Assembly: GCA_963806185.1 (NCBI GenBank)
Contig: CAWDXE010000001.1
Span: 512,001-576,000 of the forward strand
Reading direction: 5' to 3'
Length of the DNA: 64,000 nucleotides
Source: an uncultured candidate division Zixibacteria bacterium
GTDB lineage: Bacteria; Zixibacteria; MSB-5A5; GN15; FEB-12
Positions 9,539-47,010 of this stretch are shown here, one piece after another. A model generated the notes under the pieces. It saw only the letters and a program-made list of their open reading frames with translations. It did not search any database and was not told the origin of the DNA. Position numbers and translations under genes: made by a program. Each line of letters starts with the position of its first letter. Within the stretch, counting starts at the first letter, position 1.

Positions 9539-9567
9539 AACAGGCGCTACCCTGAAAAGTTCGTCTT

Positions 9568-9954
9568 CTATCGTGTTTTTTTGGTGCTAATTTGCTGCGT
9601 AACAGAACTTTGCGGACTTGTTTGGTCCTGTTTCGCCTCGGCAGCTTCGAGTTTGACAGCCGAGTCAATCGGAATCCGCCAGATGCCCTTAACCGTATCA
9701 ACCAACTGGTAGCTGTGCAAACGCTGTTCTTCAGCGCTGCGCAGCTCGATCAATTGCGGATTTTCCGGCTTCAAGACCATCTCATAGTAGTCGCGCTCTC
9801 GGGACACCACGAAGTATTGCTCTACGGCCACGGAGAGGACGATCAGGATCACGATCACAGCCAGAGCAATGAGCCCGACCATAGGGACGTTGACGTCCCG
9901 CTTTTCGTACCCCGCTGAGCTGTTGCCGTGCGTTTGTGTGTCGTGAGCGCTCAT
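9568..9954 (-). CDS. Small single-TM protein of the ACIII-oxidase operon (possible ActG-like)
   Basis: GYEKRD, one TM, RIPIDSAV; located between actF and SCO. Confidence 0.6.
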   Translation of the reverse strand: MSAHDTQTHGNSSAGYEKRDVNVPMVGLIALAVIVILIVLSVAVEQYFVVSRERDYYEMVLKPENPQLIELRSAEEQRLHSYQLVDTVKGIWRIPIDSAVKLEAAEAKQDQTSPQSSVTQQISTKKTR

Positions 9955-9960
9955 GTTCCC

Positions 9961-11145: not shown

Positions 11146-11155
11146 TTCCCACCTA

Positions 11156-12300: not shown

Positions 12301-13715
12301 CAGTGTTTCCCTCCGGCTTGTGCAATCCCGTGCTTCTCGTCACCGTGGTGGTGAGGGTCGGCTTGTGGCAGCACACCCTTGACCTCAGCCATGGCCACCA
12401 CCGGCAGGAACCGGAGGAAGAGCAGGAAGAGCGTCAGAAACAGCCCGAACGAGCCCACGAATGTGGCAATATCCCAAATCGTCGGCCGGTAGTAATCCCA
12501 GGCTGACGGCAGGAAATCGCGTGACAAACTCATCACGATCACAAATCGTTCAAACCACATGCCGACGTTGATCAAGAGCGACGCGATAAACATGACACCG
12601 ATATGGGTGCGCCACTTCTTAAACCAGAAGATCTGCGGCACCACGACGTTACAGAAAATCATGGTCCAGTACGCCCAGGCGTACGGACCAAACGCGCGGT
12701 TGATAAATGCAAACGCCTCGTACTCATTGCCGCTGTACCAGGCAATGAAGAATTCGCAACTATAGGCATAGCCGACCATCATGCCGGTGACCAGCATGAT
12801 TTTGTTCATCTTTTCCAGGTGATTGACCGTGATGATGTGCTCGATCTTAAACGCTTTGCGAACAATAATCGCCAGCGTGAGAACCATGGCAAAACCGGAA
12901 AAGATAGCACCCGCCACAAAATAGGGCGGGAAAATGGTTGTGTGCCATCCGGGAATGAGCGAGACCGCAAAGTCAGTCGATACCACCGAGTGCACCGAAA
13001 GGACGAGCGGCGTCGATACGCCGGCCAGAACCAGATAGGCAAGTTCGTAATTTTTCCACTGACGGTTACCGCCGCGCCAGCCGAGTGAGAGAATACCGAA
13101 AATGAACTGGCGGATTTTGGTCTTCGCCCGGTCGCGCAGCGTGCCCAGATCGGGCACCAGTCCCATATACCAGAACAAAAGTGAACAGGTGAAATAGATA
13201 CTGACCGCAAACACGTCCCACAGCAGCGGCGAGCGGAAGTTGGGCCATATCGACATTTGGTTCGGAATCGGAAACACCCACCAGATGACCCATACACGGC
13301 CGACGTGAATAGTCGGGAAAATGAGCGCACAGATCACGGCGAAAATAGTCATCGCCTCGGCGAATCGGTTGATCGACGTACGCCAGCGCTGGCGGAACAG
13401 GAAAAGAATCGCGGAGATCAGCGTCCCGGCATGACCGATACCGACCCAGAAGACGAAATTGACAATCGCCCATCCCCAGCCGACAGGAATCTGAAGACCC
13501 CAGACGCCTGTTCCTTCGAGGAACAGATACCCAATCGAACCGAGCAGCACCAGCACCAGGGAGCCAAACAGACCCAGCAACAACAGGAATGTCATCGTGG
13601 TCTTTCGCTCGGTCAGGCCGCTGATCGCCTCGGTAATCGAGTGGAACGAGGGGTTCCCTTCGATAAGCGGCGGCTCAGTTCCGGCCTTGCGTGGAGTGGT
13701 GGTGATATCAGCCAT
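12300..13715 (-). CDS. actC: Alternative complex III subunit C (NrfD/PsrC family quinol-binding)
   Basis: [53 protein letters not shown]. Confidence 0.95.
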
Positions 13716-13734
13716 CAGTTCTTCCTAAGCAGCC

Positions 13735-16725
13735 TCACGAATTATGCTCTGACTCCAGAGCGGTCGTCGTCGCCAGCTCCGGATTCGGATTACGCAGTTT
13801 TGCCAGATACGACGTGCGCGGCCGGGTATTCAGCTCGGCCAGCACCTCATACTTGCGATCGCCCTTCTTAAGCTGGGTCACTTGCGCGTCCTTGTCGAGA
13901 ATATTGCCAAAGACAATTGCCTGAGTCGGGCAGGCCTGCTGGCAGGCGGTTTGTATTTCACCGTCGCGCACTGACCGGCCCTCCAGCTTGGCGGCAATCT
14001 TGCCGCTCTGAATTCGCTGAATACAGTATGTACACTTTTCCATGACACCGCGGAAGCGGACTGTCACTTCGGGGTTCTGCACCATCTTCAACGATTCCGG
14101 CATATTCTTGGTGTAGTTGAAGAAGTTGAAACGCCGGACCTTGTATGGACAGTTGTTGGAACAATACCGGGTACCGATGCATCGGTTGTATACCATCGTA
14201 TTCAGACCCTCGTGATCGTGTACTGTCGCCGCCACGGGGCAAACCGATTCGCACGGCGCATTCTCGCAATGCTGGCACATCACCGGTTGCATGACGATTT
14301 CCGGGTCCTCGAGGTCGCCGGCGAAATACCTGTCCAACCGTATCCACAACATCTCGCGACCGCGGCGCACCTGATCACGCCCGACAATCGGAATATTATT
14401 TTCGCTCTGACAAGCCATAGCACACGCGTTACAGCCGGTACACGCATTCAGATCGATCGACATCCCCCACTGATAGCCTTCGGTATACTGATGCTCGTCC
14501 CACATGGAGACCAGCGGCGGATGATGGGGCTGTTCCGGCTTGAAATCTTCGCCCGCTTTGTACTGTTCGAGCGTCGCCTCGCGAATGATCGGCCGACCGT
14601 GCATCGACCCTTCTTCCTGGGTTTGCGCCAGCTCGTGGTTCCGGCCCGTGCGAGTCACCGTCAATCCAGCCGCAAAAAACGGGCTGGTCGACGCACGCAG
14701 AAGGTAGGTGTTGACGCCGACATTCTCGGCCACCCGCCCCATACTGTTGCGGCCGTATCCGAGCGCCACTGAAACCGTGGCCTCGGCCTGACCGGGGTTC
14801 ACCCAGACAGCCATCTCGACCTTCTTGCCGTCCAGATTCAATTCAACGATGTCGCCGTTAACCACACCGAGCCGTTGGGCCGCCTTTGGACTCACCGCCG
14901 CGACATTCTCCCAGGTGGTCTTGGTAATTGGATCGGCCAGCTCCTGCAGCCAACCGTTGTTGGCGTAGCGGCCGTCCCACACATTTGAAATCGTGAACAC
15001 CAATTCGAACGCGTCACCCTTCGCCTGTCGGGCACGCACATCAGCATAGGCAGCATCGAACTGAGCGGCAGATGTAGCCGGCGGCATTGCATTCAGTACC
15101 GCCGGAGCCACGGCACTGTCCTTCAGCACGCCATCGTGTAACGTGCGGCGCCACTGCCCCTCCGCGTCGAGCCCGCCAATCATCCCGCTCCAGGTTTCCC
15201 GGACAATGTCGTACCCCTTCTTCTCTTCACCCGTGGCGACGAGCGCAAGTAACTCGACATTACTCTTGGTGGCATACAAAGGCTCGATGAGCGGCTGGAT
15301 CAGACTGACGGTGCCGTCCGAAGTGCGAACGTCGCCCCATTGTTCGAGGTAGTGCGATATCGGCAGATGCCATTGCACCGCCTCCGCCGTTTCATCGACA
15401 TGGGTGCCGGCGGCAATAGTGAGCTTCACCTTTTTGAGAGCGGCCTCAAAATTGAGATCGGTCGGAGCATGGTAGACCGGATTTGCGCCCAGAACGACCA
15501 GTGTGGTGACCTCTCCGGCGTTCATCGCCGTAGTCAGCTCAGCCAGGGCTCTGGTATCGGATGGTGACGCATCCTGCAATGGATTGTACGTTACTGTATT
15601 GCCGATGTTATTCAACTGCCGGTTGATTTCGAAGGCGAGCGCATGCACGATCGGAGGCTGGTTGCGACCCACCATAATGATACTCGCGCCACGCGCCGAT
15701 TGCAGGTCTCCGGCCAATACGCGTATCCATTTGGCATCGAAGGACGCTTCCGGAGTTGCGTTGATAGTACGAATCCCCAATTCGGCGGCGAGGAGCAGGA
15801 GAAAATCGAGTATCTGACTTGAGGCGACACGCAGGCGATGGTCAGCCAACATGCCGGTGAGCGTATACGCCGGCTCGACCACGTAGAGACGATTCATGGC
15901 ATCCTGCTTGCCATAAACTCGACGGCCGTCCATGAACCCCTTCTGATTGCGCACCGCATCACTCTCGGTGCGGACAAAATCGTTGTTAAGCGAGAGAACG
16001 ATCTTTGCTTTTTCCAGGGAGTATACGGGCTGATGCAACGTGCCAGTGGCAAGACGAATGCCCTCGAATACCTGCTCGTCGCTTACCGGCTCGTACGAGA
16101 CAAAACGAGCTTTCGGGAAAGTCTTCTTGAATTCGCCCATCAGACGCGCGAGCGTCGGCGAACCGAAGGGGTCGGTGAGAACGGCGAGCCCTTCTCCGCC
16201 GGTCGAAGCAAGACTCTTGTGCTGACCGGACCAGAACGATGCAAAAGCCGACCAGGACGACGCCACATTCTGATTCATCACCTGGCGGGCACGATCGGGG
16301 TCATACAGATTCAGTATCGAAGCTTGAAGCCACGGCGTTGAACCACCACCGGGCGTCGACGGATGCTCGGGGTTCCCGTCGACTTTGATCGGGCGGCCGT
16401 CGCGGCTGGTCGCCAGCACGCCATAACCGCCAATGCCGAAAGGCATCGTGGTGGCATACAGGCGGGATTCACCGGGGTCAACACCTTCCGGGCGGGTCAC
16501 ATATGGAACAATCTTCTCCACCGGCTTGCGGCAGCCCGCCAGGCCGGCCAATGCCACCGATGCGCCCATTAATGTTAAAAAGCTCCGGCGTGACCAGTCA
16601 TTGCCGAACTCGGATGCACCCTGCGGGAACTCCCGATCAAGAAATTCGCGAAACTCGGGCGTGTCCTGCAACTGGCCGAGGCTGCGCCAATACTGCTTGC
16701 CGTTTTCGTTATGCATCTGGTTCAT
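13735..16725 (-). CDS. actB: Alternative complex III subunit B (molybdopterin-oxidoreductase-like + Fe-S)
   Basis: YWRSL, Tat motif SRRSFL followed by LAGC; C-terminal CTGCNAC, CQHCENAPC, CIGTRYCSNNCP, EKCTYC; ATGA overlap with actA. Confidence 0.95.
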   Translation of the reverse strand: MNQMHNENGKQYWRSLGQLQDTPEFREFLDREFPQGASEFGNDWSRRSFLTLMGASVALAGLAGCRKPVEKIVPYVTRPEGVDPGESRLYATTMPFGIGGYGVLATSRDGRPIKVDGNPEHPSTPGGGSTPWLQASILNLYDPDRARQVMNQNVASSWSAFASFWSGQHKSLASTGGEGLAVLTDPFGSPTLARLMGEFKKTFPKARFVSYEPVSDEQVFEGIRLATGTLHQPVYSLEKAKIVLSLNNDFVRTESDAVRNQKGFMDGRRVYGKQDAMNRLYVVEPAYTLTGMLADHRLRVASSQILDFLLLLAAELGIRTINATPEASFDAKWIRVLAGDLQSARGASIIMVGRNQPPIVHALAFEINRQLNNIGNTVTYNPLQDASPSDTRALAELTTAMNAGEVTTLVVLGANPVYHAPTDLNFEAALKKVKLTIAAGTHVDETAEAVQWHLPISHYLEQWGDVRTSDGTVSLIQPLIEPLYATKSNVELLALVATGEEKKGYDIVRETWSGMIGGLDAEGQWRRTLHDGVLKDSAVAPAVLNAMPPATSAAQFDAAYADVRARQAKGDAFELVFTISNVWDGRYANNGWLQELADPITKTTWENVAAVSPKAAQRLGVVNGDIVELNLDGKKVEMAVWVNPGQAEATVSVALGYGRNSMGRVAENVGVNTYLLRASTSPFFAAGLTVTRTGRNHELAQTQEEGSMHGRPIIREATLEQYKAGEDFKPEQPHHPPLVSMWDEHQYTEGYQWGMSIDLNACTGCNACAMACQSENNIPIVGRDQVRRGREMLWIRLDRYFAGDLEDPEIVMQPVMCQHCENAPCESVCPVAATVHDHEGLNTMVYNRCIGTRYCSNNCPYKVRRFNFFNYTKNMPESLKMVQNPEVTVRFRGVMEKCTYCIQRIQSGKIAAKLEGRSVRDGEIQTACQQACPTQAIVFGNILDKDAQVTQLKKGDRKYEVLAELNTRPRTSYLAKLRNPNPELATTTALESEHNS

Positions 16726-17369
16726 CGGTGGCAGCCCCAGCAGTCTGTCGGTGGTTTGATGTTTCGAGCTTTGACGGTCTGAGCGGCCCAATCCGCCTGA
16801 TCGACCGGAGGATTCCACTTCATGTTCGTCACCTCGGCCACAGGGCGGAGATTCGGAGCCGGGTTGCGGTGGCAATCCAAACACCAGCCCATCGAGAGCG
16901 GTTGAGCCTGTGAGACCACTTCCATTTGTGCGACATTGCCGTGGCAACTGATACAGGCGACGCCCGCGTTGATGTGCGAAGCGTGTTCGAAATAGACATA
17001 GCCGGGCATGTTGTTCACGCGCACCCATTGCAGCGGTACGTGGCTGGCAGCGCTCTCGCGGACCAGCGTCAACTTTTCACTTTCCGGCTTCACCAGCTTG
17101 TGGCAATTCATGCACGTCTGAGTCGGCGGTACGTTGGCGTGCGTGGCGCGCTCTACCGAGGTGTGACAGTAGCGGCAATCCATCCCCAGGTCGCCGGCGT
17201 GCAGCTTGTGGCTGTATTCAACCGGCTGTTTCGGGCGATACCCGACATCCAGGTAGCGGGGCGAGCCGTAATACCAGAACCCGCCGACCGCAGCGATCAA
17301 CCCGCACAGTACGACGCCAAGAGAGATAAGAGGGAGTTTATTGGCCCATTGGGGAAATATTTGCGGCAA
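16722..17369 (-). CDS. actA: Alternative complex III pentaheme cytochrome c
   Basis: N-terminal TM, five CxxCH motifs (CRYCH, CMNCH, CISCH, CLDCH, CWGCH); TTG start. Confidence 0.93.
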   Translation of the reverse strand: MPQIFPQWANKLPLISLGVVLCGLIAAVGGFWYYGSPRYLDVGYRPKQPVEYSHKLHAGDLGMDCRYCHTSVERATHANVPPTQTCMNCHKLVKPESEKLTLVRESAASHVPLQWVRVNNMPGYVYFEHASHINAGVACISCHGNVAQMEVVSQAQPLSMGWCLDCHRNPAPNLRPVAEVTNMKWNPPVDQADWAAQTVKARNIKPPTDCWGCHR

Positions 17370-33393: not shown

Positions 33394-34446
33394 TCAAGCA
33401 ACGATTAAATGGTGCGTGGCAAGAGAAACTACTTCACCGATAATCCGACTGGGCAATCCCTCGGCAGCCAACTCGGCGCCAAACGCCTCAGCCCGGTCGG
33501 GAGCTATGGCTATCAGCAGTCCTCCGGAGGTCTGGGGGTCAAACAGCAGATGTTCGAGACTGGCGGGCAAGGTCGCCACAAAGCGTATGTGGGGGGTTAC
33601 AAACTCTCGGTTGTCACTGGCACCGCCGGGAATCATGCCGGCGTCGGCAAGTTCAAGCGCCTCGGGGAAGACGGGCAAGGCATCGGCGTAAAACATGATG
33701 CTAACGCCGGATCCTGAAGCCATCTCAAACCCATGTCCCATCAACCCATAGCCGGTGACATCAGTGGCCGCGTGCGCGGTATATTTTAGCATCAGCTCGG
33801 ATGCAGTTCGATTGAGAGCGGCCATTTGGGCCATGACCAAGGCCGTCACTTCGGGGCTGGCCTTGTCCCGCTTGATTCCGGTTGTAATTATGCCCGTGCC
33901 AAGCGGTTTGGTGAGGAAAAGCCGGTCACCCACCTGGGCACCGGAATTGGTGATGATCCGCGAGGGGTCAATGAGCCCGGTCGCCGCCACACCGAATTTC
34001 AATTCCTTGTCTTTGATGGAGTGTCCGCCGACAACGACCGCTCCGGCCTCAGTCACCTTGTCGTTTCCACCTCGCAGAATCTCAGTCAGAACTTCCTGGG
34101 GCATACCCATTGGGAAGCCTACGATATTCAAGGCAGTAATTGGCCGTCCTCCCATCGCATAGATATCGGACAGGGCGTTGGCCGCGGCAATCTGGCCGAA
34201 CATGTACGGGTCGTCGACAATTGGTGGAAAGAAGTCGACCGTTTGCACCAATGCCAACTGGTCACTGATCCGAAACACGCCGGCGTCGTCAGCCTTGTTG
34301 AAGCCGACCAGCAGGTCGGGGTGACTGGCTTGCGGCAGGTCTTTGAGAGCGTCGGCCAAGAACTTTGGCCCTAGTTTTGACGCTCAACCCGCGCAGGAGA
34401 CCTCGGCCGTCAGCTTGATGGTTGTCAGTTTGCGTTTGTCGTCCAC
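33394..34446 (-). CDS. selD: Selenide, water dikinase, selenocysteine-containing (TGA at 34384-34386)
   Basis: KLT...SCAG-TGA-ASKLGP in frame with DDAGV, TVDFFPPIVDDP, ATDVTGYGL.GH, DPQTSGGLL. Confidence 0.95.
34347..34385 (-). promoter_or_regulatory. Bacterial SECIS element of selD
   Basis: Overlapping and just 3' of the UGA: GAGCGUC-aaaacuag-GGCCAA-AGUUC-UUGGCC-GACGCUC two-stem hairpin with G in apical loop. Confidence 0.8.
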
Positions 34447-34720: not shown

Positions 34721-36850
34721 ATGAGCCAGGAAAAGAAATCGAACCTCCGTATTGACGAGATTCTTCTCTGGGACGGTCTGGTTACTGAGACCCAGGTTCG
34801 GGAAGCCCTGCAGCACCAGAAACTTCACGGCGGTAAAATCGGGTCGCACCTCATGCGACAGGGTCATGTCAATGAGGCTGGGCTGGTGCAGGCACTGTCA
34901 CGCCAACTCGGCTGCGAGGGCGTGATCCTTACCGGACGTGAGATTCCAGCTGACGTCATTGCCCTTGTCCCACAACAGGTGGCGATCGCCAGAACAGTCA
35001 TCCCATTCAACTACGATCTGAATGCCAAGACTGTTGATATTGCCTGCGAGAACCCATCCGATCAGGATCTGCTTAACGAGCTATCGTTCATCCTGAAGGA
35101 TCGGACAATCAGATTATTCATTGCCGCTGAGATCGCCCTGAAGTCCGCGATCGCCCGGTACTACCTGGCTATGCCGGGGCGGGAAGCGGATCAAACCGGA
35201 GATATGGTTAAGGGGATATTCGCCTCTGACCCGACTTACCCGCAGGTGTCGGTTGGCACCAGGCGCGAGCCGGTATATCGGGGCACGATCCTCATGGTCA
35301 CCGACGATCAATTGGCTGATTTTCGTCTGCGCGAAGCAATGGAAATGGAACATTATCGCGTGGTGACGACGGAGTCAGCCGATGACGCCATCGACATCAT
35401 TTCCGGCCAGCAGTTTGACACGGTGTTTATTCGCGACAGCGTCCAGGGCGATTACATCGATTTGATCGATCGGTTGCGCAAAATTTCTCCGCGCACCAGA
35501 GTTCGTTATTACGACGCCGCCACCAGTCTGCTGACCGACAGCGAGGGAAGCACCACAATCGTTGATCTGCAGGTGCGCAATCTCGATCTCTTCACCTCTT
35601 TGTTGTCATCACGTGAGAAACTCGCCAGCAATCACAGTGGGACGGTTGGTCAGTATGTCGACAAGCTCTGCCGGCATATCGGGATTCCGGACAAAGACCG
35701 ATTGGTGATTACGACCGCCGCCTACCTGCATGACCTGGGTCGATTCTACTATGGTGACGCCACGCAGTTGAGCGACAGCCGCTCGCAGATCAATCTGACA
35801 ATTAAGCTGCTCGATTCGCTCAATTATTCGCCGCTCGTGATCGGTATTCTGCGCTCGATGTATATCAATCTGCGGGAGAAATACACCAAACGGCTGCCGA
35901 TTGAGACGCTCGGGGGCAATATCCTGACCGTCATCGATATCTTCTGCGAGCACATTCCGGTGGGCCAGAAGATGTCGCTGGATCGGTTCGAGGTCGTTCA
36001 GCGGAAATTTCATGACCTCAAGGGGAAGCTCTTTCTCTCCGAAGTGGTCGACGCCTTCCTGAACATGATTCAGAAGGACATTCTGTTGCCGCAGCCGAAC
36101 GAGAAGTTCAATCAGGTCATGGTGTATTGCGACGATGAAGAAATCATTGCCCCCGTGGAAAATCGCCTGCGAAGCGAGGGGTTCCGCACGATCAAGCAAT
36201 CCAAACTCGAGGCTTTCATCGACCTGTACAAGCGAAGCAAGCCGGACATCCTCGTGCTGATCGAACATGGCGGACCGTCAAAGGTAGTCAATTTGATTGA
36301 CGCGACCATCTCCGGCGGTATTGATCTCAAGCAGGTACCGACGTTTCTCCTGACCGACGTCTGGGTGGCTTCACAGTTGACCTCTATTTTTGACAAGGGA
36401 ATCGAGGACCTGATTCCGATCGACAACAACCTGAATCTGCTGATTGTGAAGATGAAGAAAGTCCGGTCCCGCATTGAAGCGGCCTCGAATATACCGATGG
36501 CGCCCAAGGACATTCCGGACGGCACCGGGGCGATGGGCAATCTGGTTGACATGAACCTGATTGATCTCCTCCAGGCACTGGGGCCGAGTCGCCGCACGGT
36601 GCGATTGACCGTCTCGTCCAACGCGAATGAGCTGATCATGTACCTCGATCGGGGCGATATCGTCTACGCCAAGCTGAACGAGCAGCAAGGTGCGGAAGCG
36701 GTTTATGAGGGGCTGAACTGGAAATCAGGTTTCTGGACGGTGCAGCCGGTTACTCGCGAACAACTCCCGCAGCCGAATAACGAATTCAGCAACGAATCGA
36801 TTCTGATGGAAGGGTGTCGACTGATCGACGAAAAGCAGAAGACCAGCTAG
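34721..36850 (+). CDS. Multidomain signalling protein: MshEN/GspE-N, receiver-like, HD, receiver-like, DUF4388
   Basis: RIDEILL..GLVT..QV.EAL..Q....KIG..L N-terminus; HS..V and AAYLHDLGR; C-terminal GNLVDMNLIDLLQ...SILMEG. Confidence 0.8.
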   Translation: MSQEKKSNLRIDEILLWDGLVTETQVREALQHQKLHGGKIGSHLMRQGHVNEAGLVQALSRQLGCEGVILTGREIPADVIALVPQQVAIARTVIPFNYDLNAKTVDIACENPSDQDLLNELSFILKDRTIRLFIAAEIALKSAIARYYLAMPGREADQTGDMVKGIFASDPTYPQVSVGTRREPVYRGTILMVTDDQLADFRLREAMEMEHYRVVTTESADDAIDIISGQQFDTVFIRDSVQGDYIDLIDRLRKISPRTRVRYYDAATSLLTDSEGSTTIVDLQVRNLDLFTSLLSSREKLASNHSGTVGQYVDKLCRHIGIPDKDRLVITTAAYLHDLGRFYYGDATQLSDSRSQINLTIKLLDSLNYSPLVIGILRSMYINLREKYTKRLPIETLGGNILTVIDIFCEHIPVGQKMSLDRFEVVQRKFHDLKGKLFLSEVVDAFLNMIQKDILLPQPNEKFNQVMVYCDDEEIIAPVENRLRSEGFRTIKQSKLEAFIDLYKRSKPDILVLIEHGGPSKVVNLIDATISGGIDLKQVPTFLLTDVWVASQLTSIFDKGIEDLIPIDNNLNLLIVKMKKVRSRIEAASNIPMAPKDIPDGTGAMGNLVDMNLIDLLQALGPSRRTVRLTVSSNANELIMYLDRGDIVYAKLNEQQGAEAVYEGLNWKSGFWTVQPVTREQLPQPNNEFSNESILMEGCRLIDEKQKTS

Positions 36851-37347
36851 GCGGAATTCCTGTCGGTGACAGGGACAGCACTGCTTACAGACTCAATCCA
36901 CCGCTCGATCTGCCGCAAGGCCGGTTCAATCGCCTCGATGATCGGAGGCGTCATCTGTTCGGACAGCGTATTGACATCGAGGGCTTCCACGGCCAGGACA
37001 GTCACCTTCTCCGGCATCTTCGCGCCAAGCGCCCGCCCCAGGGCAAGAGCGGTAGGTAAGCTGATCTGGTGTGAGCCGGTCAGCGTATTCGACGGCGCCA
37101 GCTCCCCCGCATCGAAGAGATGCAGAGTACCGGGACGAGCATGGCCTGTCACGATAGCATCGACAATCAGGACACGAGGCCGATCACACAACAAGTCCAG
37201 GAGCGCAAAGCCGGCTGTGGCGGCGCTGATAATCTCAACGCCGCCGATATGTTTCGCACGGGCCGAGAGGCGGTCGGCCACGGTCGGCCCGAACGCATCA
37301 TCACAATGCACTTCATTTCCGAGGCAGAGTACCAGCGGAGCGCGCAC
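36847..37347 (-). CDS. Hydrogenase maturation protease
   Basis: LCLGNEVHCDDAFG, LIVDAI, GSHQ; follows large subunit that has a C-terminal extension. Confidence 0.92.
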   Translation of the reverse strand: MRAPLVLCLGNEVHCDDAFGPTVADRLSARAKHIGGVEIISAATAGFALLDLLCDRPRVLIVDAIVTGHARPGTLHLFDAGELAPSNTLTGSHQISLPTALALGRALGAKMPEKVTVLAVEALDVNTLSEQMTPPIIEAIEPALRQIERWIESVSSAVPVTDRNSA

Positions 37348-37349
37348 GG

Positions 37350-38828
37350 CTATCTCCTCACGATATCGATCACCTCGCACGTAGCGGCGTCGTGCACGAT
37401 CAGTTCCAGCGGCATCTCGCCGGGAAGCGTGTGCGTGGCACAGCCAAAGCAGGGGTCATAGGCGCGGAACGCCATCTCGATCTTGTTGAGGGTGCCATTG
37501 GTGATCGGCTTGCCCTTCTTGATCAGCCCCTGCGCCGCCCGCTTGATAGACATTGAGATCGGGGCATTGTTATTGGTGGTGCCAACTATCAAGTTGGCTT
37601 CGGTGACGATGCCATTCTTATCGGTCTTGTAATGGTGGGTCAGCGTTCCGCGCGGGGCCTCGACAATACCCACCCCCTCGCCGACAATTCCCGTCGGAAT
37701 GGTATGGATGTTGTCGGACGTAATCTCGTCGTCCTGGGCCATCTGTGCGACGGCCTCACTCGCATACACCAGTTCGACAATGCGCGCCCAGTGAGTGGCA
37801 AGAGTCGAATGGACGGGTGTCTTGCCGGACCGATCCTTGGTCAAGGTCTCATAAAAACGCTCGTATTCGGCCTGGGCCAGCGGGGTTGCCATGCCGTCCG
37901 AAACATTGAGGCGCGACAGCGGCGTCGCTTTGTACACGCCCGAGTCCATGCCGTCGACAAACCCCTTCCACCCCACCTTTTTCAGATAGGGGTATTTGAG
38001 GTAGCTATACGGCTCGACGTGTTCGGCGACGTAATCGAGATAGTCCTTTGGCTCGTACTGCGCATGCCTCGTACCGTCGGGGCCGGTTACGCGCACCTGG
38101 CCGTCGTAGAAGTTCACCTTGCCGTTCTTATCCACCAGACCCATGTTATATGTCTGGTGCGCGTAGGCATCGGAAAGAATGAGATCAACATACTGCTTGT
38201 TGGCCAGGACGATGTCGTTGAGCACCTGCACGGCGAATTTGGAGAATTCGACCATATCCTTGCCGATCTGAATGATTTCCTGCTGTTCTTCCTTTGTCAC
38301 ACGCTTGGACATGCCGCCGGGAATGGCCGTCACCGGGTGCACTTTCTTGCCGCCGATGATTTCAATGACGCGCTGCCCGCGTGCTCGCTGGGCGATCACT
38401 TTCTTGCCGGCATCCAGACCTACCTTTGCTATGACCCCAAGAATGTTCCGTTCGGCCGGCGGAGCGTCGGGGCCGCACACAAAATCCGGACCACCGAGGG
38501 CAAAGAAATGGGTCGTGTGGTCGCCGGAGTAAAAGGCACAGTACATCAGTTCGCGAAGTTTGAAGGCAGCCGATGGAATCGTGACGCCATAGACTGCGTC
38601 AGCCGCTTTGGCCGCCGCCAGATGGTGGGCATCGGGACAGACGCCGCAAATGCGGGTAGTGATGCGCGCTAATTCCTCGACCGGTCTTCCCTGCGCGAAT
38701 TTCTCAAAACCACGCAGTTCAGGCACCTGGAAGTAGCAGTTCACCAACTCGCCGTCATCGCCGACAAAGAGGTGAATCTTGCCGTGCCCTTCAAGACGGG
38801 TAATCGGATCGATCAATATCTGTTTCAT
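37350..38828 (-). CDS. mvhA: [NiFe]-hydrogenase large subunit, group 3c (Mvh)
   Basis: ITRLEGH, L1 RICGVCPDAH, EAPRGTL.HHY, L2 AYDPCFGCATH + extension; mvhDG/hdr context. Confidence 0.94.
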   Translation of the reverse strand: MKQILIDPITRLEGHGKIHLFVGDDGELVNCYFQVPELRGFEKFAQGRPVEELARITTRICGVCPDAHHLAAAKAADAVYGVTIPSAAFKLRELMYCAFYSGDHTTHFFALGGPDFVCGPDAPPAERNILGVIAKVGLDAGKKVIAQRARGQRVIEIIGGKKVHPVTAIPGGMSKRVTKEEQQEIIQIGKDMVEFSKFAVQVLNDIVLANKQYVDLILSDAYAHQTYNMGLVDKNGKVNFYDGQVRVTGPDGTRHAQYEPKDYLDYVAEHVEPYSYLKYPYLKKVGWKGFVDGMDSGVYKATPLSRLNVSDGMATPLAQAEYERFYETLTKDRSGKTPVHSTLATHWARIVELVYASEAVAQMAQDDEITSDNIHTIPTGIVGEGVGIVEAPRGTLTHHYKTDKNGIVTEANLIVGTTNNNAPISMSIKRAAQGLIKKGKPITNGTLNKIEMAFRAYDPCFGCATHTLPGEMPLELIVHDAATCEVIDIVRR

Positions 38829-39796
38829 GATTGCACCCTCCGCAGAAGCGACTCGGGCAGGCTGAAACGGTAGAAGGTACCGATCGGATCGGCGATACTA
38901 TCAATGATACGATCAATCTCGGCCGGGTCTGATGAGTCAATTACACTGGCTATGGCGGAGGCCATTTTGGCGCCCTGATCGCGGACATTGAGCGGTATAC
39001 CGTAACACCCCCGGCAAGGCATGCCGGCGTTGACGCATTTGGCTCCGCAGCCGGAGCGAGTCGCCGGGCCGAGGCAGATGACTCCCTGCTCCAGCAAACA
39101 CAGTTTGGGATCGGCATGAACCTCAAACGGTCGGACGAATTTCTTGATCTTCTTGATATTCCGATCCCTCGTGCACTCGTCGCAGCAGCATTTTTCGCTG
39201 GCCCCCAGCACGGTTCCCTTTGGCGGGAGCGGCTTGCCGTTCTGCAGTATATCAATGACAGCCGCCACCACTGCGGCAATCTGATCGGACTGCGGCGGGC
39301 AACCGGGAATGATGTAATCGACATCAACTACCTGCCCCAGCGTACGTACGGTGTTCCACAGTTCCGGGATATGCAAAGTCCCTTCGGGCACAGTCACCTC
39401 GGGCTGCGGCAGAATCCCCTCCGGATTCACGGTCGAAGGTGACTCTTTGTAGGCATAGTTCATGATGCCCTGTTTGGTATAGAGATTGGCCAGCCCGGGG
39501 ATGCATCCCTCGGAGGCACAACTGCCAAAGGCACACAGGACGACGGACTTTTGCCGTAGAAGACGCGCGATTTCGTAGTTTTCGTCACTGCGAATAGCGC
39601 CGTTGAAAAGCGTCAGCGTGATTGACTTGTCCTCCATGGCCCGCACGTCGTCGTACTTGAAATCGGTCGCACAGGGCCAGAAGACAATATCGAAGAAATT
39701 GGCGACATCCAGAATCTTCTCTTCTATATCGAGAATGGCGATATCACACCCGCCACATGAGGCGGCCCAGTAAATAGCCAGTTTTGGTTTTGCCAT
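38825..39796 (-). CDS. mvhG: [NiFe]-hydrogenase small subunit
   Basis: SCGGC, GSCA..GCIPGLAN, PGCPP, CDEC, CLLEQGVICLGPATRSGC, CRGCYG. Confidence 0.94.
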   Translation of the reverse strand: MAKPKLAIYWAASCGGCDIAILDIEEKILDVANFFDIVFWPCATDFKYDDVRAMEDKSITLTLFNGAIRSDENYEIARLLRQKSVVLCAFGSCASEGCIPGLANLYTKQGIMNYAYKESPSTVNPEGILPQPEVTVPEGTLHIPELWNTVRTLGQVVDVDYIIPGCPPQSDQIAAVVAAVIDILQNGKPLPPKGTVLGASEKCCCDECTRDRNIKKIKKFVRPFEVHADPKLCLLEQGVICLGPATRSGCGAKCVNAGMPCRGCYGIPLNVRDQGAKMASAIASVIDSSDPAEIDRIIDSIADPIGTFYRFSLPESLLRRVQS

Positions 39797-39799
39797 AGG

Positions 39800-40261
39800 T
39801 TACTCCTTCCCCGCCGCCACTGCCGGCTGCTCGGATTTCTCCGGAACGAATGCCCAGTCGTTGAGTTTGAAGGGGCCAAGTTGCCTGATCTCTTCGGTGA
39901 ATTCAGTGATGACCTGCTGGAAACGGGCACCCTCCGAGGCGGACACCCATTCCAGTCGCAGCCGGCGCGGGTCGATACCCATCCCATTGAGAATCTTCTT
40001 GGTGATGGGGATTCGCCGCAGGCATTTGTAATTTCCTTCGACATAATGACAGTCGCCGGGATGGCAGCCACAGACTATCACGCCGTCGGCGCCGCGACGA
40101 AACGAATCAAGAACAAATGTCGGATCGACTCGCCCCGAGCACATGACGCGGATCGCCATTACGTTCGGGGGGTACTTCATGCGGGCCGTACCGGCGAGGT
40201 CGGCCCCGGTGTAGCTGCACCAGTTGCAGAGAAAGCCGATGATGCGGGGTTCGAAACTCAT
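39800..40261 (-). CDS. mvhD: Hydrogenase/Hdr [2Fe-2S] adaptor subunit
   Basis: FLCNWCSYTGADLAG, VMCSGRV, GCHPGDCHY, WVSASEG. Confidence 0.96.
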   Translation of the reverse strand: MSFEPRIIGFLCNWCSYTGADLAGTARMKYPPNVMAIRVMCSGRVDPTFVLDSFRRGADGVIVCGCHPGDCHYVEGNYKCLRRIPITKKILNGMGIDPRRLRLEWVSASEGARFQQVITEFTEEIRQLGPFKLNDWAFVPEKSEQPAVAAGKE

Positions 40262-42015
40262 GACAGCATCCCCTCGATTTGAGCGTATATCTGATCGTCG
40301 GTAAATTGGCGGGCAGAAATCGCGCCCGCAGGACAAGCTGCCACGCATGTCCCACAGGCCTTGCACAAGGCGGAATTCACCGTACTCACCTTCTTTTCGG
40401 CATTGTAATCGATGGCCGAATACGGACACATGTCGTTGCAGATACGACAACCGGAACAGTATTCTTCCTGCACCACCGCATAGGCGGCATCCATGAGGAT
40501 TTCGCCCTGGGCAAACAGCTTGAGCACCTGAGCGGCCGCCGCGCCGCCCTGGGCGACGGTATCCGGAATGTCCTTCGCCCCCTGGCAGGCGCCGGCCAAA
40601 AAGACTCCGTCAGTCGTAGTCGATACGGGAGCCAGTTTCGGGTGCGCCTCGATAAACCAACCGTCGGCGCCGGTCGAGATATTGAACTTGCGGCCGGTCT
40701 CTTTGGCGTCGGGCCGCGCTTCGAGCGCCGTGCAGAGGATGACCATGTCCACCGGGATTTCGCGGAATTTGCCGATCAACGTATCTTCGCAGCAGACCAG
40801 GAGGTGTCCTTCGTCGCCGCGTCGGTTACCGGAAGGAATCACCTCGGCTACTTTGCCGCGGATGACGTTGACGTCCTCATCAAGGATCCTCTGGTAGAAC
40901 TCCTCGTACCCTTTACCGAAGGAACGCACATCGATGTAGAACTGGTATACCTCGGCACTGGTCTTTTCCTTAACCAGATGCGAGAACTTGAAGGCATACA
41001 TGCAGCAGACGCGGCTGCAGTACTTGTGATGGTTCTCATCGCGGCTGCCTACGCAGTGGACAATGGCGATGGCGCGTGGCTCTTCGCCGTTCTCCAGCAT
41101 GATCTTGCCGCCGGTGCTACCGGCCGCATTATTCATAACCTCGAATTCTTCGGCCGTTATGACATTGGGCAGGCGACCGTAGCCGAACTGCTTCATCGGC
41201 GTCGGATCAAACGATTCGAAGCCGGTGGCCATGATGACCGCACCGACGTCAAATTCCTCGACCACATCCGAGGTGTGGAAATCGATCGCTTCCTTCGGGC
41301 AGACTTTGGCACAGACCATGCATCCGCCGGTCTTGAAATGAATGCAGTTCTCGCGGTAGATCCGCGGCACATTCGGCACGGCCTGGCGGAAGGGAAGAGA
41401 GATGGCCGCATTCGGGCTGAGGCTCAGTTCGCGGTGATCGACCTCCTTAAGGTCGAGCGATTCCATCTGGATATAGCCGGTCGGACACAGTTTGGCGCAG
41501 GCACCACACAGGATACAGTTGGTGGATTCGGCATCAAAGGCGGTCGAGACGTCGCGCTCGGCGCCGCGATTGATAAAAGACAGTGCGTGGGCGCCAACGA
41601 CCTCATCGCACACGCGGACACACAATCCGCAGAGAATACAGGTATAGGTTCCCGTACCCCAGCGGGGTTCGGTGATCCCCAACTGCTCCGCCAGTCTTTG
41701 CAGTACCGGAACAGGCGAGCAGTTAGCCATGAGCATTTCCAGGTTCGTGCGTCGAGCATTAATGACGCGGGCGGTGTCAGTGAAGATTTGCAGCCCGTCC
41801 CAGGCGGGATAATTGCAGGCGGTCACAATCTTGTTCCACCCGTTGCCGGCGCGGGCTTCCACCGCGCAAATGCGACAGGCGGCATACGGCGTCATATGGG
41901 GATAGTAGCAGAGAGTCGGGATTTCAATGCCAAGTTGCTTGGCCGCCTCGAGTATGTACGAGCCTTCCTCGACTTCCACCTTCTGTCCATCTATCGTTAT
42001 TGAAACAAGGGGCAT
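40258..42015 (-). CDS. hdrA: Fusion: NuoG/HydA-type N-terminal Fe-S module + C-terminal half of HdrA
   Basis: IPTLC...CRIC...TAC [2Fe-2S]; CILCGLCVRVC, CILCGACAKLCP; then PFRQAVP, VGAVIMATG, CVGSRD, YCSRVCCMYAFK, HPKLAPV, AGACQGAKDIPD, C-terminal 2x[4Fe-4S]. Confidence 0.9.
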   Translation of the reverse strand: MPLVSITIDGQKVEVEEGSYILEAAKQLGIEIPTLCYYPHMTPYAACRICAVEARAGNGWNKIVTACNYPAWDGLQIFTDTARVINARRTNLEMLMANCSPVPVLQRLAEQLGITEPRWGTGTYTCILCGLCVRVCDEVVGAHALSFINRGAERDVSTAFDAESTNCILCGACAKLCPTGYIQMESLDLKEVDHRELSLSPNAAISLPFRQAVPNVPRIYRENCIHFKTGGCMVCAKVCPKEAIDFHTSDVVEEFDVGAVIMATGFESFDPTPMKQFGYGRLPNVITAEEFEVMNNAAGSTGGKIMLENGEEPRAIAIVHCVGSRDENHHKYCSRVCCMYAFKFSHLVKEKTSAEVYQFYIDVRSFGKGYEEFYQRILDEDVNVIRGKVAEVIPSGNRRGDEGHLLVCCEDTLIGKFREIPVDMVILCTALEARPDAKETGRKFNISTGADGWFIEAHPKLAPVSTTTDGVFLAGACQGAKDIPDTVAQGGAAAAQVLKLFAQGEILMDAAYAVVQEEYCSGCRICNDMCPYSAIDYNAEKKVSTVNSALCKACGTCVAACPAGAISARQFTDDQIYAQIEGMLS

Positions 42016-42029
42016 ATGGTCAACACCTC

Positions 42030-44046
42030 CTACACCGTCACGGCTTGTTGTTGGGTCGGCCGAGCCGGGTTCCAGTGTTCTTTGGCAATCTCCTGGATGC
42101 GGTCGCCCTCGCCTCGCTTGACCCGCTTGATGCTGTCGTAGCGGCAGATCTGATAGCAGGCGCCGCATTGAATGCACTTGTCCTGTATGATCACGTGGAG
42201 CTTCTTGGGTTCGCCCACGATCGCTTCGGTGGGACACGCCTTCTTGCAGGCATGACAGCCGTTGCAGGTTTCATTGATCGCATGCGAGACCAGTTCTTTG
42301 CAGACGCCGGCCGGGCAGCGTTTGTCAACCACGTGGGCCATGTACTCATGGCGGAAGTATCGCAGGGTCGACAGGACCGGATTGGGCGCCGAACCGCCCA
42401 ATTGGCAGAGGCTGGTGTCGATGATGACCTGCGAGAGTTGCTCGAGATACTCGATATCCTCCGGGACGCCATGGCCGTCACAGATCTTCTTCAATATGTT
42501 GTGCATGACCACCAGACCCTCGCGGCAGGGTACACACTTCCCGCAGCTTTCCTCGGTGAGAAAGCCGAGGAAGTACTTGGCGACATCGACCATGCACGAG
42601 TCGGAATCCATCACGATCATGCCGCCCGATCCCATCATCGAACCGGCTTTGGTCAATTCGTCAAAATCGATAGGCAGGTCGAGCAGGCAGGGGGCCTCCT
42701 CGTCTTCCTTGATGTCGCCGTGGGCGACCATGCTCTCACGAATGGCCTGCTCGCTGGTTTCCACGATGAGCGTGCCACCCGACGGACCGCCGGTCTGTAC
42801 CGCGCGGAACCGTTTCCGACCGGGAACACCGCCGCCGATATCGTAAAGAATCTCGCGCAGGGTGATCCCCATCGGGACTTCGACCAGTCCCGTGTTATTG
42901 ATCTTGCCGGTGAGGGCAAACACCTTTGTTCCCTTGGAACCGGCAGTGCCGATCTTGGAGAACCATTCCCAGCCCTGGTTAATGATAATAGGAACGTTCG
43001 CCCAGGTTTCGACATTGTTAAGGCAGGTCGGCTTGTCATAGAGTCCGGCTTCAACCGTATGGATATACTTCGCCCGCGGTTCGCCCATCTTTCCTTCGAG
43101 CGAGGCCATGAGCGCGGTTGATTCACCACAGACGAAGGCGCCGCCACCCCGTGAGATTTCGATGTCGAAATCAAAACCGGTGCCGAGAATGTTTTTGCCG
43201 AGCAAACCAATCTCGCGCGCCCGATCCAGGGCGACGATGAGATTCGTCACGGCGAGCGGATACTCGTTACGAACATACACAAAGCCATCGTTGGAGCCGA
43301 TGGCAAACGCGCCGATGATCATCCCCTCGATGACCGAATGCGGATTCCCCTCGAGCAGGGAACGGTTCATGAAGGCGCCCGGGTCTCCCTCGTCCGCGTT
43401 GCAGACGATGTACTTCGGTGAACCCTGCGCGCGACGGCAGTGGTCCCACTTGCGACCGGTCGGAAAGCCGCCGCCGCCTCGCCCGCGAAGTCCGGACTTC
43501 TTGATTTCGTCAATGATGCGATCGGAGTTCATTGTGGTGAGTGCTTTCACCACCGCCGTGTACCCGTCGTGTAAGATGTAGTCGTTAATGGAGGCAGGGT
43601 CGATCAGGCCATTATTACCGAAGAGAAGGCGCATCTGTTTCTTGTAGAACGGGATATCCCTTTGGTGAACGATTGTCTCGCCGCTTTGCGGGTCGCGATA
43701 AAGCAGGCGGTTGACCAGGCGACCGCCCTTGACGGTCTGTTCCATGATCAACTTGACGTCACCAACCTTGACCTTCTGGTAGAAGATCTCCTGTGGCTGA
43801 ATCAGGACGAGCGGGCCGCGTTCACAGAAACCATGACAGCCGGTAGTTTCGAGTCCGACGGTGTCTCCCGAATCGGTCTTCGGCGATGGCCTTGCGAAAG
43901 GCTTCGGCCACCGGGGCACAACCGCAGGCAAGACAGCCGGTGCCGGTGCACAGGGTGATGACCATCTTATTGGGGTCGTATTCTTGCTTAAGTCTGGCCC
44001 GCAGGGAGGCAAGCTCTTTCGGGGATTGAAGTTTGTTGACCTTCAT
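42030..44046 (-). CDS. nuoF: NuoF/HydB-type FMN/NAD(H)-binding subunit, long form (frameshift near 43868)
   Basis: N-terminal [62 protein letters not shown]-terminal 2x[4Fe-4S]. Confidence 0.92.
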
Positions 44047-44562
44047 ACATTCTCCTCGCGGTCGGGCTCGGACTTCTTCCCTTTCAAATCGGCCAGCATC
44101 TTGTCGACTTTCGACACGGTCATATTGCCGTAATAGACTTCGTTGGCGGTCACCAGCGGTCCCAGCGCACAGGCGCCGAGACAGTTGACGCTCTCCAGAG
44201 AATACTGCATATCGGCCGTGGTCTCGCCGGACTTGATTTTGAGTTCACGCTCGAGCTTGTCGACAATGACGATCGACTGGCGCACATGGCAGGCCGTGCC
44301 GGTGCAGACGCAGATGTGATTTTTCCCCTTGGGGGTCAGGCTGAAAGTCTTGTAGAAGGTCGCCACGCCGTAGATCTGAGCGACCGGGAGCTTCATGCGT
44401 TTAGAGACCGCGAGCAAAGCGGCTTCCGGCAGATAACGATAGTGTTTTTGTATATCCTGCAGGATCATGATCAGCGCCGACGGCTTGGCGCCGTATTCGT
44501 TGACGATCCGCGTAATTACTTCATTGACGTCGTAAGTCAGGTGGCGCTGTAGTGGTACTCAT
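44043..44562 (-). CDS. nuoE: NuoE/HydC-type [2Fe-2S] subunit (frameshift near 44540)
   Basis: VATFY, VCTGTACHV, VNCLGACALGP; SD GGAGG and ATGA overlap with hdrA N-half stop. Confidence 0.92.
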
Positions 44563-45543
44563 ACGTCAACCTCCTCCATATCCGGTGGAACATTTTCGGG
44601 CATCGGCTGAGCGCCCGTGAGCACGGTCAGATCGTGTCGCGGCCCGAGGATGTACTTGTCGCGCACGTCGAGCAGTCGACCTTCGCGATACACGCGACCG
44701 CCCAGGAGCATGCGACGGTCGCGCGGGAACGGACGGCTCGGGCAGGCCTCGTAGCAGGAGCCGCAGCTGTTGCAGAGCGTGGTATCGACATACCGGGCCT
44801 TACTGCGCACCTGCGACTTTGAAATTGCCGATATACCCGCTCACACTCTCAATCTCCGCCCAGGTCATCAGCTTGATATTCGGATGCTTGCCGACCGATA
44901 CCATCTTCGGGGTCAGAATGCAGGCGGCGCAATCGAGAGTCGGGAAGGTTTTGTCGAACTTCGACATGTGGCCGCCGATGGTCGAATCGCGCTCGACCAG
45001 AATAACCTTATAGCCGGCGTCGGCGATCTGCAGGGCCGCCTCGATTCCGGCGATACCTCCGCCGACAATCATCACCTGCTTGGTGATCGGAACGCGGCGC
45101 ATTTCCAGCGGTTCGTGGAACCGGACCCGCGCTACGGCGGCCCTCACCAGCGCCTGTGCCTTGCGGGTCGCACCGACGGCATCGGTGGTGACCCAGCTCA
45201 CCTGCTCGCGGATATTGGCCATCTCAAAGAAGTACCGATTGACGCCGCCGGTCTCGACCGCCTTGCGGAAGGTGCTCTCGTGCATCAGCGGACTGCATGC
45301 GGCGACGACGACCCGATTCAGATTGAATTCCTTGATATCCTTCTGAATCAATTCCTGCCCCGGGTCGGAACACATGAAGCGGTAGTGTCGGGCAATGACG
45401 ACGTTGGGCTGCGCCGCAGCCGTCTCCACCACTTTGGCTACGTCAACCATCTTTGCGATGTTCGAGCCGCAGTGACAGACATATACGCCGATCCGGATAT
45501 CGTCGGCGTTCTTCGGCCGAGATCCATTACCATCGTTTGTCAT
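44559..45543 (-). CDS. hdrA: N-terminal half of heterodisulfide reductase subunit A (frameshift near 44814)
   Basis: RIGVYVCHCGSNI, MCSDPGQ, AACSP, ANIREQVSWV, GGGIAG, DKTFPTLDCAACIL, RYVD..LCNSCGSCYEACP then unrelated tail and stop. Confidence 0.9.
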
Positions 45544-46422
45544 ACGTTCACCTCCACGGCCCTGGCAGTCAGCTTCTCCGCGGGGATCATCAATTTGTCC
45601 ATGCCCATCTTTCCGGGGATCAATGCCCAGGGCCACGCCCAGCAGGTGGCTGAAATACACCACCGGAATATTGAAAGTCTTACCGGAGCGGGCGTTGATC
45701 TTGTTCTGATAGGCCTCAAGATTCATCTGGCAAAGCGGGCAGGCCGTGGCGATGATATCAGCGTTGTTGTCGGAGGCAACCTCAAGCAGCCGCAGATTGA
45801 GATCAAGCGCGATTTCTTCCTGAGTGGTCATCAGCATACCGCCGCAACAGCGCACCTTGGCCGGGAAATAGGTGACCGTTGCACCGAGCGCCGTAAACAG
45901 CTTGTCCATCGTCACCGGATCGTCAACGTCATCAAAGTGCCCGTGGGGTCGGACAATTTGACAGCCGTAGTAGGGAGCCACTCTGAGTCCGGTGAGTGGA
46001 TTCTTCACCTTGGCCTTTATGGCGTCGAGACCAATGTCATTAGTGAGAATATCGAGCGGATGCTTGACCTCGACGGTAGTCGTATAGGAGAGGTCAGCCG
46101 CGGCGAGCGCTTCGTTGACCATTGCTCGCTCCTTGGGATCCCAGTCAACGCTTCGATTGGCCTTGCGCAGAATCGTGTAGCATGAACTACAGGGGGCGCA
46201 GATCTCCATTCCCATCTTCTGAGCTATCGCCAGATTGCGAGCCGAGATCGCAGTCGCCACGATCTTTTTCACCGACATGTACATCGTCGCTCCGCAGCAA
46301 TTCCAGTCTTCGATTTCGGTCAATCCGATTTCGAGCACGCGAAACACTTCGCGAATCGATTTGTCATAGGGCGAAGCCGAGTGTTCCAGGCTGCAGCCGG
46401 GGTAGTAGGCATACTGTTTCAT
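45540..46422 (-). CDS. hdrB: Heterodisulfide reductase subunit B (frameshift near 45616)
   Basis: YYPGCS, WNCCGA, PCSSC, YYGCQ, CCGG, ACPLCQMNLE; true end MGMDKLMIP...VEVNV-stop overlaps hdrA ATG. Confidence 0.93.
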
Positions 46423-47010
46423 GCTTCATCCCCCAATTTGTTGGCACGATCGATGATCGCGCGTACTTCGCTTATGCGTTTGATCTTCTTAGGCAGAAGC
46501 CCGAGCCGGCCGCGGCGAATCATTGACAGCCCGAACCCGGCGCTGGCGAACAGCTTCGTCCACTTCGATCTCAAAAGGTAGCGAATACCCAGTCCCAGTT
46601 CGAAGTTGCGGCCGTACGTATACACCTGATCAACAAACGCATTCGACAAGTACATGGACCGGAAATTGCTGCGGGTATACTTTCTTGTCCATCGCGACGC
46701 GTTTTAGTGCGTACATCGTGTCGGTGACCTTGATACCGACCGGACATCGCACCGTACACGAATAACACGAAGCACACAGCCAGATCGTCCGGCTCCGCAG
46801 AATATCCTCCAGTTGGCCGGCACGAAAGAGCGCGATCACTTGCCGGGGTGTGATATCCATCGCGTGTGAGACCGGACAGGTCCCCGTACAGGTGCCGCAC
46901 TGCAGGCACCGCTTTATCTTCTGACCGTCGGGAAACGTAGTGACCTGTTCCCAGAACGCTTCTCTAAGGTCGGCCTCGGTCTTGGGAAGAGGTTCCAAAG
47001 CACCCCGCAT
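46419..47010 (-). CDS. hdrC: Heterodisulfide reductase subunit C (frameshift near 46648)
   Basis: CLQCGTCTGTCP and WLCASCYSCTVRCP; SD GGAGG. Confidence 0.92.

Follow-up and report, generated by a model that had tools for sequence, protein, structure and literature searches.

In the solved super-assemblies of the methanogen MvhAGD-HdrABC hydrogenase/heterodisulfide reductase, the low-potential arm of HdrA ends at the inserted ferredoxin domain, where VhuB or FmdF dock (PMC13518236). Two modules acting in series within one complex are already known from class II benzoyl-CoA reductase (BCRII), in which the HydABC-type (Bfu) module comes first; according to the preprint on this enzyme, two distinct bifurcating modules in one complex were unreported before BCRII (bioRxiv 10.64898/2026.04.10.717634). 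An MvhADG/HdrABC cluster has been mentioned in a Zixibacteria genome, and the portion of that paper covered here mentions no split (PMC3903129). We considered an operon in a 64,000-nucleotide stretch of DNA from an uncultured Zixibacteria bacterium (hereafter the window) that encodes an MvhAGD-HdrABC hydrogenase/heterodisulfide reductase in which HdrA is split and a Bfu module is placed at the inserted ferredoxin. Taking sequence, models and analogy together, we lean towards a complex that would run two bifurcations in series.

HdrA is split and fused to a Bfu subunit

The operon comprises ten tightly packed genes on the minus strand, from position 47010 to 36847, in the order hdrC, hdrB, hdrA-N, bfuC, bfuB, bfuA::hdrA-C, mvhD, mvhG, mvhA and a protease gene, with junctions of -4 to +14 nucleotides in the seven that were computed. 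A preliminary description of this DNA had placed HdrABC, MvhADG, a protease and a long HydB-type subunit in one operon, which gene calls and profile matches bear out, and every motif it quoted is present in the sequence. Its inventory missed the split in HdrA, the HydC-like gene, the BfuA domain and five frameshifts.

HdrA is encoded by two genes 2.5 kb apart, cut inside the inserted 2x[4Fe-4S] ferredoxin domain, with bfuC and bfuB filling the gap. The N-half (44559..45543) covers positions 1-230 of the HdrA2 profile. It carries the N-terminal cluster domain, the first Rossmann part of the flavin adenine dinucleotide (FAD) domain and a CxxC motif (DCAAC), and it ends past the first inserted-ferredoxin motif, CxxCxxCxxxCP, with a conserved tail. 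The C-half covers profile positions 261-640 and sits behind a HoxU/NuoG-N-type domain of 190 amino acids (BfuA) in a fusion protein of 585 amino acids (40258..42015). Residues 1-190 of this fusion are BfuA, and residues 195-585 hold the second inserted-ferredoxin motif, the FAD domain with E292 and K343, cluster cysteines 321, 333, 337 and 338, and the C-terminal ferredoxin. The arrangement thus departs from canonical (type I) HdrA, a single polypeptide with an intact inserted ferredoxin.

The residues of interest are well kept among relatives. Each of the 24 aligned tails has all four cysteines of the N-half motif, and E292 and K343 are invariant in 33 of 33 fusions. The Lys in CCMYAFK and the Glu in ITAEEFE, both singled out in the preliminary description, align with K409 and E356 of 5ODC_A (numbers counted from the alignment), so that the FAD site has the two residues and the adjacent cluster cysteines expected of a bifurcating HdrA; the K409 equivalent is present in 59 of the 60 fusion open reading frames (ORFs) that reach the motif. 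Public annotation calls the fusion 'HdrA' or '4Fe-4S protein', labels that hide the split-HdrA-Bfu system.

The inserted module has the signatures of a bifurcating Bfu

The BfuA domain has one [2Fe-2S] and two [4Fe-4S] cluster motifs and no His-ligated cluster, whose HxxxCxxCxxxxxC motif is absent from 62 of 62 fusion ORFs. It thereby matches Bfu type 2, in which BfuA lacks the His-ligated cluster and extra subunits feed BfuA (PMC9304861).

The gene bfuC (44043..44562) encodes a HydC/NuoE-type subunit with a [2Fe-2S] cluster, and bfuB (42030..44046) a HydB-type subunit with an N-terminal [2Fe-2S] domain, a flavin mononucleotide/NAD(P) domain, the B1 and B2 sites and a C-terminal 2x[4Fe-4S] domain. 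The BfuB sequence includes [24 protein letters not shown], and CxxCxxCxxxC occurs twice in its C-terminal part. All five ligands of the B2 site as described for the family (PMC9304861) are found, namely the cysteines in SCMV, KKIC, RCP and VCK and the histidine in AHV. The full set of Bfu (HydABC) ligands, B1-B5 in BfuB and C1 in BfuC, is likewise present, with the B5 ligands straddling a frameshift here and intact in relatives. BfuB also has the Ala/Glu232, Met234, Phe367 and GGPSG features that Losey gave for bifurcating BfuB (PMC7311640), seen in [18 protein letters not shown]. In a partly redundant set of 51 BfuB proteins encoded next to the fusion (L097 equals L106 in sequence), the AxM motif occurs in 50, GGPSG in 50, the B2 His motif in 51 and the C-terminal ferredoxin motif in 45. 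The best PDB match of BfuB is 9MQX_B of Wor-Bfu, with which it has a PR-KYIH motif in common. A 24-amino-acid insert past GGPSGG (window 42700-42775) is kept in the clade of the window's BfuB and does not occur in solved HydB structures.

Structure models place BfuA at the inserted ferredoxin

A complex of the 60-amino-acid N-half tail, fusion residues 1-260 and four cubanes was modelled with a score of 0.78, against 0.00 for the best of three controls; the runs shared 83% or more of their contacts, and the pLDDT (predicted local distance difference test) of the partner was 72 or higher. Among 157 solved complexes, 116 attain the mark applied to such models, and among 215 mismatches, 2 do. In the model, Cys16 and Cys20 of the N-half contact Cys235 and Cys239 of the C-half, tail residues 31-32 contact BfuA residues 183-184, and the tail touches the BfuA cubane region. 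The two HdrA chains are thus predicted to form the inserted 2x[4Fe-4S] domain together, in trans, facing the 2x[4Fe-4S] domain that BfuA itself carries.

Modelled alone with AlphaFold, the window's fusion gave a pLDDT of 64, below 50 at the junction, and was set aside for geometry. Single-chain HdrA-N::BfuA::HdrA-C proteins occur naturally (L120, P0121-P0125), and the model of one of them, P0122, had a pLDDT of 79.8 and a predicted template modelling score of 0.71, with both ferredoxin motifs confident and the split-point linker disordered; the alignment behind it had unsplit rows misaligned in the N-part, which may have lowered its quality. By Foldseek, its target template modelling score was 0.87 against 5ODC_A and 0.70 against 9MQX_A.

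A proposed route for electrons from H2

By analogy with the solved Hdr and Bfu complexes, electrons from H2 would pass through MvhAG to the C-terminal ferredoxin of HdrA and MvhD, and from there to the FAD. The high-potential arm would then run through HdrC and HdrB to a disulfide. BfuA appears to take the place of VhuB or FmdF on the inserted ferredoxin, so the low-potential arm would lead through BfuA to BfuBC in place of free ferredoxin, where a second split would serve NAD(P)+ and ferredoxin (Fd). The net reaction would be 4 H2 + 2 RSSR + NAD(P)+ + 2 Fd(ox) -> 4 RSH + NAD(P)H + 2 Fd(red). With MvhDG retained, the entry side is already taken, and HdrA probably acts first and Bfu second because the fusion puts BfuA in the inserted ferredoxin of HdrA, its low-potential exit, a contact that the model supports. 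Two bifurcation chemistries in one complex, as proposed in the preliminary description, now find support beyond motifs in this gene fusion and in the complex model, while the serial coupling itself is what we infer.

Such coupling would change the H2 pressure at which the enzyme can work. Calculated with assumed potentials of -280 mV for NAD and -500 mV for ferredoxin (PMC9304861), the H2 threshold of the series lies 72-fold below that of Mvh-Hdr alone: 0.9 versus 66 Pa with a disulfide of -140 mV, and 222 versus 16,000 Pa with one of -281 mV. Over four NAD(P)/ferredoxin settings the calculated gain is 10- to 72-fold on these assumed potentials, with the ferredoxin yield halved. If the proposal is correct, bacteria could reduce ferredoxin with trace H2 at very low levels.

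The same complex could also run with Bfu as an input. NADH and reduced ferredoxin would then merge at BfuBC and flow to the HdrA flavin, and on to a disulfide and to protons with evolution of H2; or the whole series would be reversed, venting electrons from thiols, NADH and ferredoxin as H2. In BCRII, BamGHI is the confurcating module that feeds BamE (bioRxiv 10.64898/2026.04.10.717634), and NADH has been proposed as the mid-potential donor for a GltD-inserted HdrA with MvhADG (PMC12054007). Every step is reversible in principle, and the 2-oxoacid:ferredoxin oxidoreductases of this genome would need an electron sink, with no Rnf match found in the genome. The position of the module speaks for the opposite direction: in BCRII, BamI feeds the side of the C-terminal ferredoxin and BamF, and low-potential electrons leave by the inserted ferredoxin, whereas the Bfu of this operon is located at the inserted ferredoxin. 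For complete reversal, H2 would in addition have to be below about 1-45 Pa (calculated) with disulfides of -140 to -240 mV, and the genome encodes a further NAD(P)-linked hydrogenase, separate from this one and group 3b-like. We regard Bfu as an input, or reversal of the series, as unlikely.

The insert site is exchangeable

In this phylum, the hdrC-B-A-mvhD-G-A operon takes three forms, with an unsplit HdrA (about 665 amino acids), a HdrA with a GltD-like insert (1135-1243 amino acids), or the Bfu split (19 picked loci). A backbone tree was built with IQ-TREE on HdrA-C, MvhD, MvhG and MvhA from 30 of 40 rows, with two long-branch permuted rows and eight near-duplicates left out. On this tree the starred branches force four changes among the four GltD forms and no fewer than five among the split forms; the tree is unrooted, so the order of gain and loss cannot be read from it. 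One GltD form, L215, falls inside the window's clade with support of 100/100. It is a single chain that retains the N-half tail and the BfuA end, with GltD between them. Two other loci, L023 and L227, have a BfuB within the window's BfuB clade (FastTree) and a distant backbone, a placement that suggests module exchange. Judged from these trees, the insert at the inserted-ferredoxin site of HdrA has switched repeatedly.

A broader reading, which we hold only tentatively, treats the low-potential exit of HdrA as an exchangeable socket. The Bfu form would be an H2-driven double-bifurcating enzyme, with its modules in the order opposite to that in BCRII, through which widespread uncultured bacteria would reduce ferredoxin at H2 pressures far below the reach of either module alone, and lineages would tune their H2 threshold by the plug they carry (none, GltD or Bfu). 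Sister operons that differ mainly in this insert offer ready controls for the routing of low-potential electrons from HdrA.

The same exchanges bear on whether there are two coupled bifurcations at all. The Bfu arm might be a plain outlet to NAD(P) and ferredoxin, or HdrA might serve as a wire, with NiFe-HydABCSL and Mvh-Hdr in effect side by side. At four separate positions in the backbone tree, a GltD domain stands in place of Bfu, a Planctomycete variant has a NuoF lacking the bifurcation signatures, and in BCRII short circuits prevented measurement of the coupled reaction (bioRxiv 10.64898/2026.04.10.717634). Set against this, nearly all copies keep the signatures of both modules, and in Wor-Bfu, which has the closest solved BfuB (9MQX_B), NAD and ferredoxin are each reduced only together with the other, even under conditions in which both reactions are exergonic (PMC9304861). 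A single effective bifurcation or loose coupling is in our judgement quite unlikely.

Several observations weigh against two bifurcations in series. The K409 and E356 residues, although tied to bifurcation, are kept in most HdrA proteins (PMC12054007) and so discriminate weakly. Six of the 51 BfuB proteins are without the C-terminal ferredoxin domain, five of them with a GltD-like domain instead, and the sixth, the BfuB of L029, has neither, with Tyr present and GGPSG absent. Because a non-bifurcating GltD domain can fill the site, a second bifurcation is not required there. The complex job differed from its calibration in using its own alignments and ligands, and its pass, which concerns contacts and no cluster distances, may be due in part to similarity with HdrA and ferredoxin folds already solved. 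Even for the series, the calculated threshold would remain at about 220 Pa H2 if the disulfide lies near -281 mV. Comparison of dsrC across the 285 genomes of the phylum gave no disulfide partner co-occurring with the operon, and the window's own copy of the operon carries five frameshifts.

Distribution and variants of the layout

Of the 285 genomes of the phylum, 50, counting the window's, have the fusion and 153 have an HdrA of any kind. Every one of the 120 listed homologues spans 97% or more of fusion residues 1-300, and their named hosts include KSB1, Zixibacteriota, Acidobacteriota and Eisenbacteria; a second homologue search added Chloroflexota, Thermodesulfobacteriota and one Syntropharchaeia archaeon. 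Among 80 genome loci searched, 15 have the fusion and 65 are weak matches; for metagenome loci, the top 42 of 80 were annotated. The split-HdrA layout is thus real and conserved, being kept across many uncultured anaerobes.

Variants of the layout were also seen. L134 and L226 have the HdrA N-half fused to BfuC, so that both ends of the cassette are fused, and Flx-like genes follow mvhD in L134 and in L138, a permuted form. In L024, L026, L113, L114 and L119, a BfuB of about 1020-1056 amino acids beside the fusion has a GltD/NfnB-like flavin domain replacing the C-terminal ferredoxin. The Planctomycetota loci L027, L029 and L030 have a permuted BfuA::HdrA-C::HdrA-N with MvhD and without mvhAG, and in L029 a MetV-type gene follows and the NuoF lacks bifurcation signatures. 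A BamE-like permuted double HdrA with a Bfu insert occurs in L114, L128, L141, L142 and L144, with mvhDGA after it in L114, L141 and L142. Additional genes lie between hdrA-N and bfuC in L025, L026, L111, L112, L116, L119, L129 and L140; those of L025 include a [FeFe]-hydrogenase-like (PF02906) gene and a PHP gene.

Frameshifts in the window's copy

Five frameshifts fall in the first five genes of the operon: near 46640 (hdrC), near 45612 (hdrB), near 44815 (hdrA-N), near 44545 (probable, directly after the start of bfuC) and at 43870-43895 (bfuB). An apparent HdrB-HdrA fusion ORF was rejected as an artefact of the frameshift near 45612. The presence of five breaks in the first five genes might suggest real frameshifts in an operon that is decaying in this organism, a view we consider highly improbable. 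The rpoB gene of the same assembly (8 contigs, 82% complete) is broken into 11 pieces across frames, and one lon copy and oxidase genes are broken as well. All five positions are unbroken in eight related loci (L019-L023, L096, L098 and L099), and the homologous stretches are free of in-frame stops. Given the state of rpoB and the intact relatives, the frameshifts are most likely assembly errors. Two soil sequencing runs with small shares of this DNA did not bridge the operon breaks, and no RNA run was listed among the public sequencing runs that hold it.

Remaining subunits of the operon

The hdrC gene (46419..47010) encodes a 2x[4Fe-4S] protein that is intact in relatives at 194-203 amino acids. 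HdrB (45540..46422) has two CCG domains and retains all 10 non-cubane-site cysteines; behind the GC of the second domain, Gln takes the place of His, as in 24 of 28 listed HdrB proteins. These HdrABC subunits are the sole Hdr of the host genome. Downstream of the fusion lie mvhD (39800..40261; PF02662), mvhG for the [NiFe]-hydrogenase small subunit (38825..39796; best NCBIfam match VhuG) and mvhA for the large subunit (37350..38828), which has RICGVC and DPCFGC motifs and a cleavable tail. Encoded with HdrABC and with a large subunit nearest Mvh/Vhu, the hydrogenase belongs with MvhAGD-HdrABC (group 3c); 5ODC_F is the best PDB sequence for MvhA, with 7T2R_D close behind. A hydrogenase maturation protease gene (36847..37347; PF01750, TIGR00072) completes the operon. 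A promoter and terminator scan of the operon did no better than chance.

The disulfide and the host genome

The preliminary description found no dsrC gene in the window. This is correct for the window, since the only DsrC match of the genome is on another contig, at G000:C4:49461-51966 (L101), where a dsrC with two C-terminal Cys lies with genes for a membrane protein and an HmcF/TmcB/DsrK-like protein. The membrane protein is DsrM-like by position and hydrophobicity, with no NCBIfam match at 1e-15. Across the 285 genomes of the phylum, 165 have a strong DsrC match; dsrC is present in 33 of the 50 with the fusion and in 132 of the 235 without it, kin not being independent. DsrC was rejected as a dedicated substrate of HdrB on these counts and because it is absent from several 100%-complete fusion genomes; it is a candidate for this genome only, in which a thiol cycle via DsrC to the quinone pool is possible. 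Sulfate reduction was rejected, with no dsrA or aprA match in the 82%-complete genome. In G033:C35, G036:C6, G038:C7 and G039:C20, an unsplit hdrA has tandem DsrC-like domains encoded 5-8 kb away.

The host genome has two electron-transferring flavoproteins (ETFs) and oxidases, and no Rnf match was found at its 82% completeness. Vor-like 2-oxoacid:ferredoxin oxidoreductase genes followed by bfuCBA form a Por-Bfu type cluster at G000:C4:201000-207000 (L102), whose BfuB is 57% identical to that of the window. The group 3b-like hydrogenase operon, with a cyclic-nucleotide-binding-like gene, is at G000:C4:394000-399000 (L104), and hypD is on C1. Within the window, aa3-type cytochrome c oxidase genes adjoin Qrc/ACIII-like genes (5427-17369), and the host is therefore probably a facultative aerobe. 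A gene with AIRS domains (Pfam) at 33394-34400, which we take from its motif to be selD-like, has an in-frame TGA (VSCAG*ASKLG) upstream of the called ORF that probably encodes selenocysteine.

Comparison with known systems

The encoded complex would function as an Mvh-Hdr with a type 2 Bfu attached, and it is not a canonical HdrA, BCRII or type III HdrA system. With methanogen MvhAGD-HdrABC it shares six subunit types, K409 and E356, the cluster ligands and the 10 HdrB cysteines, and the methanogen structures (PDB 5ODC and 8RVU, with VhuB or FmdF in super-assemblies) give the best PDB matches for both HdrA halves, HdrB and MvhA. It differs in its two-chain HdrA with Bfu at the inserted ferredoxin, the His to Gln change in HdrB and its bacterial host.

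Type 2 Bfu complexes (Wor-Bfu, PDB 9MQX; Por-Bfu; NiFe-HydABCSL, 7T2R; PMC9304861) share the BfuBC core signatures and a BfuA fold like 9MQX_A, whereas here the third substrate would be the low-potential arm of HdrA; the sections of that paper considered here have no Hdr-Mvh class of Bfu. Type III HdrA/HdrL (PMC12054007) also has an insertion between the two inserted-ferredoxin motifs, together with mvhADG, and occurs in the same operon in this phylum. Its GltD is one unsplit NAD(P)H module, whereas the Bfu of this operon consists of three subunits, interrupts the hdrA gene and brings an additional outlet to ferredoxin; a GltD inside HdrA is absent here and present in the sister operon L215. 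No description of the Bfu-split layout was found in the literature searched, beyond which Appel et al. 2021 (BBA, HdrA classes) may describe it.

BCRII, Bam(BC)2DEFGHI, shares HydBC-type and HdrA-type modules in one complex and a BfuA without the His-ligated cluster (bioRxiv 10.64898/2026.04.10.717634). Its Bfu is a separate input on the entry side, and its outputs are benzoyl-CoA and ETF. The operon has the reversed order, a gene-fusion link, a hydrogenase and an HdrB with both non-cubane sites (10 cysteines kept), the distal one of which is disrupted in BCRII, and it encodes a single HdrA, with no BamBC tungsten module and no double-HdrA BamE. If our proposal is correct, it would be the second case of two bifurcating modules in one complex, H2-linked and in the order opposite to that of BCRII, and because its substrates are simple, the coupling that is unmeasured in BCRII might be testable in this hydrogenase-Bfu complex.

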